A stretch of 64,000 nt of DNA from a phage. Location: the NCBI GenBank assembly GCA_025611195.1, contig GCA_025611195.1_4718.2, one strand, 5' to 3'. This document shows positions 2,803 through 7,387 of this stretch, piece by piece. A model generated the notes under the pieces. The model was not told the origin of the DNA. It saw only the letters and a list, made by a program, of their open reading frames with translations, and made no database searches. Position numbers and translations under genes: made by a program. How positions within the stretch are numbered: the stretch's first letter is position 1; the number at the start of each line of letters is the position of its first letter.

Positions 2803-3822
2803 TTACACCGCCACCTTAGCCTTGATAGCCGGATGTGATTGATATCCGACGAACACAAAGTCTTCGTAACGGTAATCCGTAATACTTTCCGGTTTACGTA
2901 CGATTGTTAGCTTCGGTAATGGATACGGCTCACGGCTGAGCTGCTCTTTAACCTGTTCGAAGTGGTTGTGATAGATGTGGCAATCTCCACCCGTCCACAC
3001 GAACTCACCAACGTCCATATTCAGCTGTTGGGCAAGCATATGCGTCAGCAACGAATATGATGCGATGTTGAACGGTTTCCCGAGCACTGCGTCGCACGAA
3101 CGCTGGTAAAGCTGACAGGATAAGGCACGTGTTGGTACGTTATGCGCATTCAACCAAAGTTCTGTTTCACTGTGTCGTACATCATCCGTAACCCACTGGG
3201 TTCTTAATACGTCATTGCGTTGAACATAACCAACGCGTTCATCGATGGTGAGCTCGTGGGTATAGAACTGATAAAATGAATGGCACGGAGCGAGATGCAT
3301 ATCGTCTAAATCACCTACGTTCCACGCGCTAACGATGATCCGTCGAGAATCGGGGTCTTCTTTAAGCTGGCGCATCACGTTTGCAATCTGATCGTGATGT
3401 CTAACATACACGAGGTGTTTTAGCATACCGTCATTAAGAATGCCGCAATACTCATAGCCGCGTTGCATCAACTCACGAGTACGTTCTGTATCGTGCGGAA
3501 CAACCACTTTGTAGTCGATCCATTCCCGCCATTGTTTGCCGTAAATCGGTCCTAGATTCCCTTCTTCGTCAGCCCACTCATTCCAAATACGAACACCGTT
3601 ATCTTGAAGATAAGCAACGTTTGTGTCGCCGTTAAGAAACCAGAGCAGTTCGTGGATAACGCTCTTAAGGTGAATCTTCTTGGTGGTTACCAGCGGGAAC
3701 CCTTTCTTCAAGTCAAAACGCATCTGACGTCCGAATACAGAACGGGTCCCGGTGCCTGTACGATCGGCTTTATCACGGCCGTTATCCATGATGTCTTGCA
3801 AAAGGTCCAAATACTGTTTCAT
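2803..3822 (-). CDS. thyA: thymidylate synthase (ThyA family) with two insertions relative to E. coli ThyA
   Basis: Translation has the ThyA signature: [53 protein letters not shown], catalytic [22 protein letters not shown]; ATG at 3822. Confidence 0.9.
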
Positions 3823-4178
3823 TTTAATCCTCTAAGTGTTTCAAGTAGTTCCTGAAATTTGTAACGATATTTAGAATCACTTAACGTGTAACAGCAACCA
3901 CGTAACACGTTATGCGCGTAATCAGCTTGTAAACCACGAACCTTCGGATCCAGTGATAGATTCAATGACGCGTCATCAAAAATCCACGCTTCAATGTTCT
4001 TCTTAGATTCCTTCGTTAACATCGTTTTCACCTCGTAGTAAAAGTAAATAGAGTTTTGTCGAGACGCCCTAATTACATACAACGTAGGTTCTCCTGGCTT
4101 CAGAGAATTCTTAAAATCCGTTAGTTTTGATGGACAGGATAAGACAGCATAAAAGCCTCCCATTACGGGAGGCTTCAT
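3819..4178 (-). CDS. hypothetical protein (119 aa)
   Basis: ORF track; stop overlaps thyA start (ATGA at 3819-3822). Confidence 0.5.
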
Positions 4179-4186
4179 TAATCAGC

Positions 4187-4735
4187 TTATTTCACAAGAA
4201 CAGCGAATTCGAGAACGTAAATAGCTTCATCGTCCATCGGATTTGTTGTGGTATAGCCAACGAAGCAATAACCCATATCCACGATAAACTCGCTAAGTTT
4301 ATCGATGACTGATGCCTCGATGCGATCATCAACAGACAGACGACATTTACGGGTTATGTTTTGCCCGCGAGGAACACCAGCCAACACGGATAGAAAATGT
4401 ACGATCCGATTATTGGTTGTGAACTGCACGTAATCATCGTAGTGCTTAAGGTCTTTCATCGCAGACTCTACCGTCATCCGGCGACCAGGTGATACATACT
4501 CAGAATAAGAATAAGCTGCAATCGTGCGGCGGTCTTCAGTGAGGTAAGTATTCCCTTCGGGATGATAGCTCTCGATTGTTCCGTCTTCATAGGCGACGGT
4601 TACAACAGGTGCGCCGTACTCGTCGCGACCGAAATCAATCTTACATTTATTCGAAAGCGGTAGAACTGTACAAGGCTTTGCATTGTTCTCATCGGGGAGA
4701 TCGTAACCACTCATCATTTTCAAGAACATAGACAT
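4187..4735 (-). CDS. hypothetical protein, paralog of 4822..5355
   Basis: Shares M..NNAKP.T..F.RD..G.P...G..P.GN.Y..D..TIA.Y.YS pattern with the adjacent gene. Confidence 0.55.
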   Translation of the reverse strand: MSMFLKMMSGYDLPDENNAKPCTVLPLSNKCKIDFGRDEYGAPVVTVAYEDGTIESYHPEGNTYLTEDRRTIAAYSYSEYVSPGRRMTVESAMKDLKHYDDYVQFTTNNRIVHFLSVLAGVPRGQNITRKCRLSVDDRIEASVIDKLSEFIVDMGYCFVGYTTTNPMDDEAIYVLEFAVLVK

Positions 4736-4787
4736 AATAGAACCTCATGATAATAGATAATAGAAATGATAGATAGTACAACAAATT

Positions 4788-4811
4788 GAGGGGGTATTAT
4801 CCCACCCCCTC
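4788..4811 (-). terminator. GC-rich hairpin (GAGGGGG / CCCCCTC) after gene 4822..5355
   Basis: 7-bp inverted repeat with 10-nt loop just downstream of the minus-strand stop. Confidence 0.5.
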
Positions 4812-4821
4812 GCAGGGATTA

Positions 4822-5355
4822 CTACTTAACGATCGCGATGATTTTGCCGCTCGCACCGGCGTAATATGCTGTTAATTCACCAGTAAACAACTCTTGTAAA
4901 AGACGATTTACGTGACTAACAAAGTTAGGATTGTCTGATTTTACAAACTCGATATTGCGCGTTTGTTTTATATCACGATCGATTAAACGGATTTCCAACA
5001 ACGCACAAATAAGGCGATCGTCGAGTTCACCACTCGCATCCAGCACTTCCCCATACTTCGTAGCACGGACGTCCGCATACATACGGTCAACATCATCCTT
5101 CCCAAAACCACAGGAATAGGCATACGTTGCGATGGTGTTACCATTGTCCATCACATAAACGTTACCACCTGGGTAATCGATAAATCGTTGATCCTTATCA
5201 CCATGAGCGACGAACTCCAGTGTCGGTCTACCCATCGAATCACGGTTGAATTCAATTGTGGTCAAGCGATCTGGTACCACATGCAACGTAAATGGTTTCG
5301 CATTGTTACGATCGCTAGTATCGCAGTTGCCCATTACTTTTACAATAACACTCAT
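4822..5355 (-). CDS. hypothetical protein, paralog of 4187..4735
   Basis: Tandem paralogy visible in translation (see 4187..4735). Confidence 0.55.
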   Translation of the reverse strand: MSVIVKVMGNCDTSDRNNAKPFTLHVVPDRLTTIEFNRDSMGRPTLEFVAHGDKDQRFIDYPGGNVYVMDNGNTIATYAYSCGFGKDDVDRMYADVRATKYGEVLDASGELDDRLICALLEIRLIDRDIKQTRNIEFVKSDNPNFVSHVNRLLQELFTGELTAYYAGASGKIIAIVK

Positions 5356-5429
5356 GTTTTATTCCTTAGTAGTCCTAGTAGTAGTATTGAGGAATAGCAC
5401 CTCATTAGATAGTCTATTTTGGTAATGAT

Positions 5430-5729
5430 TTACTGAAACAGGACATTAAACTCGACGAGATACCCATCGGATCTATCACCACGATATCTGTTGCAGAAAA
5501 CACCGAATTTCATCAAGAACTCACATAACTCTTCGGCTTTGTATAACGGAATACGATTTTCGTCGAGCAGAGGACACATATGGCTAACCAGCTCCGACGA
5601 ATCAACGCAACACAAATAAAGAAGGAACCGAACAATAGCTCGGTTCTTAGTGAAGCTCTCGAATTCACCTGCGGTTCTGAACTCATCGAGGAGCTTTGTC
5701 GTTTTCTTCAATCGTTCACGATCAAGCAT
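5430..5729 (-). CDS. hypothetical protein (99 aa)
   Basis: ORF track; ATG at 5729. Confidence 0.45.
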   Translation of the reverse strand: MLDRERLKKTTKLLDEFRTAGEFESFTKNRAIVRFLLYLCCVDSSELVSHMCPLLDENRIPLYKAEELCEFLMKFGVFCNRYRGDRSDGYLVEFNVLFQ

Positions 5730-5751
5730 GTTAACCTCAATACGAACATAA

Positions 5752-5783
5752 CCCTCCTCCGACCCATCAGGGAAGGAGGAGGG
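5752..5783 (-). terminator. CCCTCCTCC / GGAGGAGGG hairpin between minus genes
   Basis: 9-bp inverted repeat 5752-5760 / 5775-5783 just downstream of the stop at 5793. Confidence 0.5.
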
Positions 5784-5792
5784 AATATGCTG

Positions 5793-6107
5793 TTATTTTG
5801 TTTTAGGTGTTGAACCGTTCTTCTTGAAGTCGGATTCGTATTTCACGTTAGAATCGAGAACCTCACGAACGGTTTTATCCGTACAGCCACGAGCGATGTA
5901 TGCATTAAGATCATCACGTAATTTACGCATTGTTGTTTTATCCGCATCAGAAATATCTGACTTGGTAAGACGGAATGCAATTGCGTCACGGATTTTATTC
6001 AGCGTCGCTGGGTTAATACGCTGTTCTGCAAATACCGCTTTGATGAACTTATCGCTATCTTTCGAAGCGACGGCAGCATCAAGAATCTCAATATGCTTTT
6101 CAGACAT
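5793..6107 (-). CDS. hypothetical protein (104 aa)
   Basis: ORF track; basic/acidic mixed small protein. Confidence 0.45.
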   Translation of the reverse strand: MSEKHIEILDAAVASKDSDKFIKAVFAEQRINPATLNKIRDAIAFRLTKSDISDADKTTMRKLRDDLNAYIARGCTDKTVREVLDSNVKYESDFKKNGSTPKTK

Positions 6108-6163
6108 CTTCTTTCCTTTAATAAACGATCATCGTCATATTCATTGCGCAGGGTACTATCACT

Positions 6164-7387
6164 TCAGTAGCTTAGACATCCCGTGCTACGCGCCAACGCA
6201 ACGTCATATGCATCCATGATCGCATCACCGATAGCGGTATGACGAATCAACGGAATACCCATGTCTGGATACTCTTTGGTACCTAAGATGGATACCGGTT
6301 TGTCTTGATACGCGGCAATCATCGAACGGATATCCTGAACCTGGTTATAACGACAAACTGGCTTAAAGCCTGCTTTACGGAACCAATGTTCTAATTGAGG
6401 CCAATCTGTTTCACCGCGAGCAAGATAATAGAAGGTATCCTTACCGTAGTATTCGGTCATCTCATCACGGATATTGTTAACAAATGCATTTACTGTAGCA
6501 ATGGCTTCTTTATAGTCCATCACTCCGACATGCTGAAAACAATAGTCGCGCGCTTCCTTCGGTGCTTTGGTTTGCCACCATTCTACCGTGGACTTACTAA
6601 TATCACCGCCATCAGCGATTTGACCGTAAACGTCAGGGAAGATATCTATACGTGGACCGTTAATAACAGATTCTGGATTAGCTAGATCAAAGAACAAGAT
6701 GCCGATTTCCAGCAGTACCCCGTTCTTTTCCAGACTGAGATTCTCCACATCCAGGCAAAACGCAGGTTTCTCTACCGCTGAAAAATCAAAATATTCTTCG
6801 AGGCGCGGCGTTGGTTCGGCGGCGAAAAACGTCTCATGAATGAACTGGGCGAATGTCTTATTCTCTGCTACTAAGTCAATACCCAATTTACTTAGCAGAG
6901 GTATAATTGCACGGTCGTTGTACTCCATTACCACCAACTCTTGGCTTTTGATAGAACGACCAATTGAGTAAAAAAGATGAACGATATCTAACGGTTTGTA
7001 CGGAGCCTCAAAAGTTGTTCCCTGGAACGACTCAGCCAGCGCCTTATGCGTTTCTTCACGATGATTCATCAGTTGGAAAATAGCACAGCGCAGATAATGC
7101 CGTAATGTTATCTCGTGAAGGTGTGATGTATCTTCCTGAAATAACGTCATGAAACCGTGATATGTATAATACTCGCCTCTTTGAATTTCTTCGAGGAGTT
7201 CTTTGTCCCCATTTATTTCCTCTGGTGTTATCGGTTCGATTTGATCATGGATAATATTGAGCAGGTCACTGCCGTGTACCTTAAACAGTTTTTCAACGCT
7301 AAAATCGGGTAATGTCGCAATTGCTGCGTACATTAATGTTTCTGCGGGATTAAGTTCTTTATTGTCAATTGTGATGGTTAAAGCCAT
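6164..7387 (-). CDS. putative DEDDh (DnaQ-like) 3'-5' exonuclease domain protein
   Basis: C-terminal part has FCLDVENLSL (D.E) and HTAIGDAIMDAYDV (H.A..DA) motifs; start moved to ATG at 7387 (MALTITID) with GAGGT RBS. Confidence 0.55.
   Translation of the reverse strand: MALTITIDNKELNPAETLMYAAIATLPDFSVEKLFKVHGSDLLNIIHDQIEPITPEEINGDKELLEEIQRGEYYTYHGFMTLFQEDTSHLHEITLRHYLRCAIFQLMNHREETHKALAESFQGTTFEAPYKPLDIVHLFYSIGRSIKSQELVVMEYNDRAIIPLLSKLGIDLVAENKTFAQFIHETFFAAEPTPRLEEYFDFSAVEKPAFCLDVENLSLEKNGVLLEIGILFFDLANPESVINGPRIDIFPDVYGQIADGGDISKSTVEWWQTKAPKEARDYCFQHVGVMDYKEAIATVNAFVNNIRDEMTEYYGKDTFYYLARGETDWPQLEHWFRKAGFKPVCRYNQVQDIRSMIAAYQDKPVSILGTKEYPDMGIPLIRHTAIGDAIMDAYDVALARSTGCLSY

Follow-up and report, generated by a model that had tools for sequence, protein, structure and literature searches.

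Two adjacent open reading frames at positions 4187–5355 of a 64,000-nucleotide stretch of phage DNA, here called the window, raise the question of how old the pair is and what its proteins do. A sequence-only reading had described them as a tandem pair of paralogs, of unknown function and with a terminator between them, a description that our analysis upholds, and had further taken them for a recent duplication whose divergence would be a signature of host-interaction genes. The window phage is closely related to Escherichia phage vB_EcoM_Goslar, a jumbo phage of the Chimalliviridae that forms a nucleus, and positions 3800–6200 align with the Goslar genome over their full length at 94% nucleotide identity. 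Both frames are present as minus-strand genes (A and B) in a block whose transcription order is 3′-5′ exonuclease, gp146, ORF C, B, A, gp142 and thymidylate synthase. Gene A is the orthologue of Goslar gp143 (YP_009820828, 96% amino acid identity) and has a GAGG Shine-Dalgarno sequence 8 nt upstream. Gene B is the orthologue of Goslar gp144 (YP_009820829, 97% amino acid identity), and every one of its 89 homologues (62–99% identity) lies in a Goslar-like contig. The features of the locus, in transcription order, are as follows:

5752..5783, minus strand: strong hairpin between gp146 and gene C (-30.4 kcal/mol, z -5.9)
5430..5729, minus strand: gene C, 99 aa plus stop, a stand-alone paralogue of the C-terminal domain of A
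5377..5390, minus strand: deletion scar with TACTACT microhomology, where A' (200 aa) and its terminator are missing in comparison with related phages
4822..5355, minus strand: gene B, 177 aa plus stop, orthologue of Goslar gp144
5104–5355: N-domain of B, residues 1–84
4825–5103: C-domain of B, divergent
4788..4811, minus strand: terminator-like hairpin between B and A (-18 kcal/mol, z -2.5) with a U-rich tail
4187..4735, minus strand: gene A, 182 aa plus stop, orthologue of Goslar gp143
4490–4735: N-domain of A, residues 1–82
4190–4489: A-type C-domain of A, residues 83–182
4152..4177, minus strand: terminator-like hairpin downstream of A (-19 kcal/mol, z -4.2), a terminator in the Goslar annotation

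Domain architecture of the gene family

Pairwise BLASTP alignment of A and B is significant, with 28 of 81 identities (35%) across residues 1–81 (E 8e-13), and reproduces the motif NNAKP...F.RD..G.P...P.GN.Y...TIA.Y.YS from which paralogy had been proposed. The similarity holds for the N-terminal ~80 residues and fails in the C-terminal halves, which cannot be aligned either as sequences or as profiles (hhalign E 0.39) and resemble each other only in predicted topology. AlphaFold2 models of A (pLDDT 93.8, pTM 0.84) and B (pLDDT 88.8, pTM 0.61) have one topology of seven β-strands followed by H H H E H E E, a match weakened in the C-domain by the presence of A-type sequences in the input alignment for B. 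Two modules that fold independently make up the family, an ~80-residue all-beta N-domain and a ~100-residue alpha/beta C-domain; A and, by its predicted topology, B carry both, C is the C-module alone, and each module is also found by itself, the N-domain as small proteins and the C-domain as gene C. Judged from the models, the most reasonable reading is full-length paralogy of A and B, with a second domain too diverged to be recognised from sequence. Independent acquisition of the two genes may also be compatible with the sequences, and the N-domain neighbour-joining tree gives no resolution, with poor bootstrap support and replicates affected by saturated distances.

The pair that had been described is part of a family with a third member at this locus, gene C, which the earlier description lacks, as it does the minus-strand orientation of A and B. 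Its protein matches residues 101–182 of A by BLASTP (E 1e-7) and the A C-domain by profile-profile comparison (hhalign probability 97%, E 7.9e-11, 85 columns), although a tblastn search of the window with C did not recover A. We consider C a real gene because it has a GAGG Shine-Dalgarno sequence 7 nt ahead of its ATG, a dN/dS of 0.12 (dS 0.83, seven genomes) and independent calls in metagenome annotations, also as a 99-aa gene. Goslar records instead place at this site a 75-aa plus-strand ORF, gp145 (NC_048170 134413–134640; window 5430–5813), antisense to C. The minus-strand gene is favoured on account of its homology to the gp143 C-domain, its dN/dS and its Shine-Dalgarno sequence, and gp145 is likely a mis-annotation in the Goslar reference genome. 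The family has no further N-domain copy among the 742 stop-to-stop six-frame ORFs of the window: an HMM built from 28 homologues of other phages together with the N-termini of A and B matched A (6e-32) and B (1e-26), with the next best hit at 0.07. The matches to A and B are partly circular because both are in the training alignment, and the value of the search lies in the absence of further copies.

The terminator hairpin reported between the two genes is borne out at 4788–4811, where the minus-strand RNA reads GAGGGGGUG-GGAUAA-UACCCCCUC followed by AAUUUGUUGU; the Goslar record annotates a terminator here, and the hairpin is conserved in the related locus L005. The hairpin downstream of A reads GAAGCCUCCC-GUAAU-GGGAGGCUUUUAU. 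The terminator-like hairpins have the form of intrinsic terminators, a GC-rich hairpin followed by a U-tract, and termination is predicted on that basis. We looked for a promoter motif common to the upstream regions of A and B and rejected it, as neither of the candidate patterns, ATGAGGTNCTATT and TACTACT, recurs in the window; the apparent upstream similarity of the two genes is due to a deletion junction. A sigma-70 promoter scan returned nothing relevant, which is expected since the phage uses its own RNA polymerases. Beyond the hairpin downstream of A, a mechanical 119-aa ORF (3819–4178, minus strand) overlaps the terminator and exceeds the real gene: Goslar gp142 and the relatives start at an internal ATG and are 67 aa long (window 3819–4022), and the upstream part of the longer frame spans a second deletion scar, that of a DUF7448 gene.

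Age of the array and selection on its copies

The nucleotide sequences of A and B have no detectable similarity (best blastn E 0.43), their N-domains are no nearer each other than they are to single-copy homologues of unrelated phages (maximum 43–44% identity), and each sampled Goslar-like genome has the paralogs, even where the B orthologue is no more than 64–70% identical. We conclude that the duplication is ancient because nucleotide similarity is absent, the 35% amino acid identity is confined to one domain and every sampled Goslar-like genome carries the paralogs. A recent tandem duplication, as first proposed for this pair, now diverging under positive selection would agree with the adjacency, common orientation and similar length of A and B, but it is barely credible against these observations, against the orthologous conservation of both copies and a third in all Goslar-like genomes sampled, and against a dN/dS of ~0.14.

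A copy-number survey of related phages, suggested along with the original description, reveals a larger array. Ten other Goslar-like loci, drawn from metagenomes and from Salmonella, E. coli and Shigella assemblies, have three N-domain genes in a row, A' (198–201 aa), B (177–181 aa) and A (182 aa), and most of them also hold C and an extra DUF7448 gene. The spacer between C and B in the window and in Goslar consists of the left part of the C–A' spacer of these relatives joined to the right part of their A'–B spacer. The junction falls at a TACTACT repeat; recombination between microhomologies therefore removed A' together with its terminator. The array C, A', B, A is ancestral to the Goslar-like group, and the window phage and Goslar, which are alike in gene order, terminators and two-copy deletion form, have lost A'. 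A second indel lies in the same small locus, between the terminator of A and gp142, where the window and Goslar have ~19 nt of unrelated sequence (~4071–4089) and relatives (L003, L005–L007, L013–L016) have the DUF7448 gene of 287–294 aa.

Selection on the array is purifying. Gene-wide dN/dS is 0.15 for A, 0.14 for B and 0.12 for C, like the 0.08–0.20 of neighbouring genes, and within the two-module proteins it is lower in the N-domains (A 0.085, B 0.017) than in the C-domains (0.21 and 0.24). All copies are thus constrained, the N-module most strongly, with no gene-wide diversifying signal, and the host-interaction signature that had been read into the divergence of A and B is not supported by these values.

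The N-domain in other phages

A phmmer search of the full library with A recovered 34 representatives, among them 30 family members. Most N-domain proteins, from dozens of contigs, are the domain alone (75–113 aa); in the others (167–481 aa) it sits at the extreme N-terminus ahead of at least six unrelated C-terminal regions, and it always starts at protein residue 1–5. Five positions are invariant in the 30-sequence alignment (R37, G61, N62, Y64 and T71 in A numbering), which include a G61-N62-x-Y64 motif; A and B keep all five, and N62 and Y64 are still invariant in 114 sequences. Profile similarity assigns the N-domain to two function-unknown PHROGs, 10337 and 10807. For phrog_10337 the match is at 3.3e-7 with B and 2.4e-3 with A, for phrog_10807 at 6.2e-6 with B and 6.4e-3 with A; of the 30 family members, 29 match the former and 22 the latter. 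A profile search added 75 further clusters, all of them lacking informative names and Pfam domains.

Homologues found by tblastn and Foldseek place the N-domain in a broad set of cultured phages, including RAY-like Erwinia phages (RAY gp198), Pseudomonas phages 201phi2-1 (gp34), Phabio and Viktualia, Salmonella phage SA002, Proteus phage 10, giant Caulobacter phages (CcrSC) and ~45-kb Acinetobacter Obolenskvirus phages. Metagenomic contigs of T4-like and lambdoid-like type have it as well. In cultured phages outside the Goslar-like group the gene is always single-copy and always annotated as hypothetical; only Goslar-like phages were found to have more than one N-domain copy or the A-type C-domain. 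We considered a nucleus-specific or nuclear-import function for the N-domain and rejected it, given the presence of the domain in T4-like, lambdoid-like, Obolenskvirus and Caulobacter phages, which lack a phage nucleus. Searches for characterised relatives were negative throughout: Pfam-A and NCBIfam gave no match above curated thresholds, PADLOC defence profiles none for A, B, C or three long homologues, and PDB sequence profiles nothing below E 0.017, and PDB sequence and fold searches that included solved inhibitors gave no match. No functional study came out of a literature search on Goslar gp143 and gp144, RAY gp198, 201phi2-1 gp34 and the PHROG identifiers.

Outside the Goslar-like group the gene is often close to tRNA genes. 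In 11 of 27 non-Goslar loci (L002, L009, L010, L017, L018, L019, L022, L024, L026, L031 and L032) a tRNA gene lies within 1 kb on the same strand, where a rough estimate would expect a few per cent for a random phage gene, the 27 loci not all being independent lineages. The gene is inside a 16-tRNA array in L019, between tRNAs in L017, L018 and L031, and 14 bp upstream of a tRNA in L009; in Caulobacter CcrSC it is just upstream of a 7-tRNA cluster. The window has no tRNA genes and Goslar encodes none (PMC6563267), so the N-domain can do without phage tRNAs. The association may be functional, through host targets related to tRNAs or translation, or may be mere co-location in early accessory islands.

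Other elements were observed at these loci. HNH homing-endonuclease genes lie one or two genes from the N-domain gene in four lineages (L009 5580–6143; L010 5809–6309; L017 4646–5167 and 8011–8228; 201phi2-1 gp35, L011 2061–2882), a nearness that may reflect only common residence in accessory and tRNA islands. At L017 7295–7551 a group I intron (Rfam RF00028, 81.8 bits) adjoins a truncated Terminase_6N ORF and an HNH_3 gene, which looks like an intron-split large terminase gene of an uncultured phage. A 222-kb viral contig that also holds an N-domain homologue (L036) carries, at 924–1363 beside tRNA genes, a permuted tmRNA-like gene (ARAGORN) with tag peptide VADNDNDVVAFASAREAIAA.

Expression, proposed role and rival explanations

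Published Goslar data bear on expression timing, a check that had been suggested for the pair, and place gp143 and gp144 in the early class. When ChmA knockdown blocks the phage nucleus, gp143 and gp144 transcripts change by -0.10 to +0.22 log2 units and the whole gp106–gp159 block is likewise unchanged, while structural genes fall by 4–7 log2 units, or ~16- to 100-fold; the authors equate the unaffected pattern with early transcription by the virion RNA polymerase (doi 10.1101/2023.09.20.558163). From these RNA-seq data we computed a read density for gp143 and gp144 of ~1.5 times that of their neighbours. Mass spectrometry of Goslar virions detected gp143 peptide DLPDENNAKPCTVLPLSDK and gp144 peptide AYSCGFGKDDVDR at an estimated ~4.5–10 and ~1–2.6 copies per virion, where true virion proteins reach hundreds to thousands (doi 10.64898/2026.04.21.720040). 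Peptides at ~1–10 copies indicate that both proteins are translated yet are not meaningful virion components. Neither stoichiometric presence in the virion nor late-class expression was found for them, in data that come from Goslar rather than from the phage of the window itself. The Goslar orthologues thus belong to the early gene class, are translated and are essentially absent from virions. A and B are acidic (pI 4.9 and 5.2) and free of hydrophobic segments, and the stand-alone homologues have a median pI of 4.8 (n=60). The family is best taken as soluble and cytoplasmic.

We favour, at a probability of about 0.4, an explanation of the whole in which the locus encodes a modular paralog family of early acidic accessory proteins of a binding or inhibitor type. 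The A, B and C proteins would be soluble early factors that act by binding. The conserved N-module, which most phages encode by itself and often in tRNA or accessory islands, may recognise a generic infection step or a target that many Gram-negative hosts share. The faster-evolving C-module would add or alter a second specificity, and several old, diverged copies could be kept to cover several targets or target variants. Such proteins might serve host takeover or counter-defence rather than a structural or enzymatic purpose. A host-directed role is plausible on the grounds of early expression, copy-number variation and an accessory locus that gains and loses genes (A' and the DUF7448 gene), and our confidence in that part alone is low, below that in the statement as a whole. 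Counting against this explanation, purifying selection on an old, stable array lacks the arms-race signature expected of many counter-defence genes.

The occurrence of the N-domain in phages of Caulobacter, Acinetobacter and Escherichia hosts is equally compatible with a target in the phage's own conserved machinery, and A, B and C could accordingly be accessory factors or chaperones for replication, packaging or morphogenesis. Conservation across phages of very different hosts and the strongly purifying N-domain dN/dS (0.017–0.085) speak for this, as do the position of the gene beside terminase, portal and head-morphogenesis genes in small phages (WCHABP1, L010) and its place among tail genes in 201phi2-1. 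We nevertheless think it unlikely, since no partner gene is consistently syntenic across lineages, the Goslar genes are early class and not of the late morphogenesis class, and copy number and C-terminal fusions vary with a freedom unusual for core machinery. The virion peptides could alternatively mark low-copy proteins injected with the DNA. That is very unlikely: ~1–10 copies is the range of co-purifying non-structural and host proteins, the transcripts of gp143 and gp144 withstand the ChmA knockdown under which virion genes fall, and in 201phi2-1 the neighbours of gp34, but not gp34 itself, are flagged as virion proteins.

Overlapping with the binding or inhibitor-type reading that we favour is the idea that the N-domain is a tRNA or translation factor, for instance one that inhibits a host tRNA-cleaving defence nuclease or modulates tRNA processing, the Goslar paralogs being specialised versions. 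The tRNA neighbours at 11 of 27 loci, the several genes inside tRNA arrays (L009, L017, L018, CcrSC and, among 16 tRNAs, L019) and the acidity of the proteins, as in nucleic-acid mimics, all point this way; yet Goslar and the window lack tRNAs, 16 of the 27 loci have none nearby, tRNA islands collect accessory genes and homing endonucleases in general (HNH genes are near here too), and no RNA-binding or nuclease-inhibitor fold was detected, which together make a tRNA or translation factor rather improbable. More speculatively, the N-domain could be an undescribed, tRNA-island-enriched domain of a new early inhibitor class directed against a conserved host system whose targets are tRNAs or translation, and the Goslar-like array a lineage-specific expansion that couples to it an exchangeable second module, a combined proposal that we hold to be a long shot.

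Part of this was on record. The genes are deposited as hypothetical proteins, gp143 and gp144 in the Goslar records among them, and the domain is catalogued in function-unknown PHROGs; the paralogy, the domain structure and gene C are absent from the Goslar records. The additions are modest: the A/B/C paralogy, the two-module architecture, the unannotated gene C, the three-copy ancestral array with its deletion in Goslar, the breadth of the N-domain and its enrichment in tRNA islands. They matter in that Goslar is a leading model of nucleus-forming phages, with no role assigned to most of its early genes. Grouping gp143, gp144 and an unannotated neighbour as one family gives a cleaner gene map and a defined knockout target, in a phage that is itself a deletion variant of a three-copy array. 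An unannotated domain that spans phages of Escherichia, Salmonella, Erwinia, Pseudomonas, Acinetobacter, Proteus and Caulobacter, often in tRNA islands, is a reasonable candidate for host-takeover and counter-defence screens. The A/B/C family does not overturn current understanding.

Several known systems invite comparison, the TusA/SirA-like two-layer alpha/beta sandwich being among those named. Small ORFs are interspersed in the tRNA regions of T4- and T5-type phages, and stand-alone N-domain genes hold just such positions, with homing-endonuclease genes near; Goslar-like phages differ in lacking tRNA genes, and no homology of the N-domain to any characterised T4 or T5 tRNA-region ORF was found. 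The phages of PHROGs 10337 and 10807 have the N-terminal ~80-residue domain in common with A and B but, unlike Goslar-like phages, carry one copy, mostly stand-alone or with unrelated C-terminal regions. Within the chimalliviruses, the DUF7941 proteins and the PF12699 inner-body proteins of Goslar and PhiKZ likewise reuse one N-terminal module with differing C-terminal parts, partly in tandem; those are abundant, late virion proteins of other folds and domains, whereas A and B are early class and present in virions only in trace. The array as a whole resembles the lineage-specific paralog arrays of accessory genes in jumbo phages.
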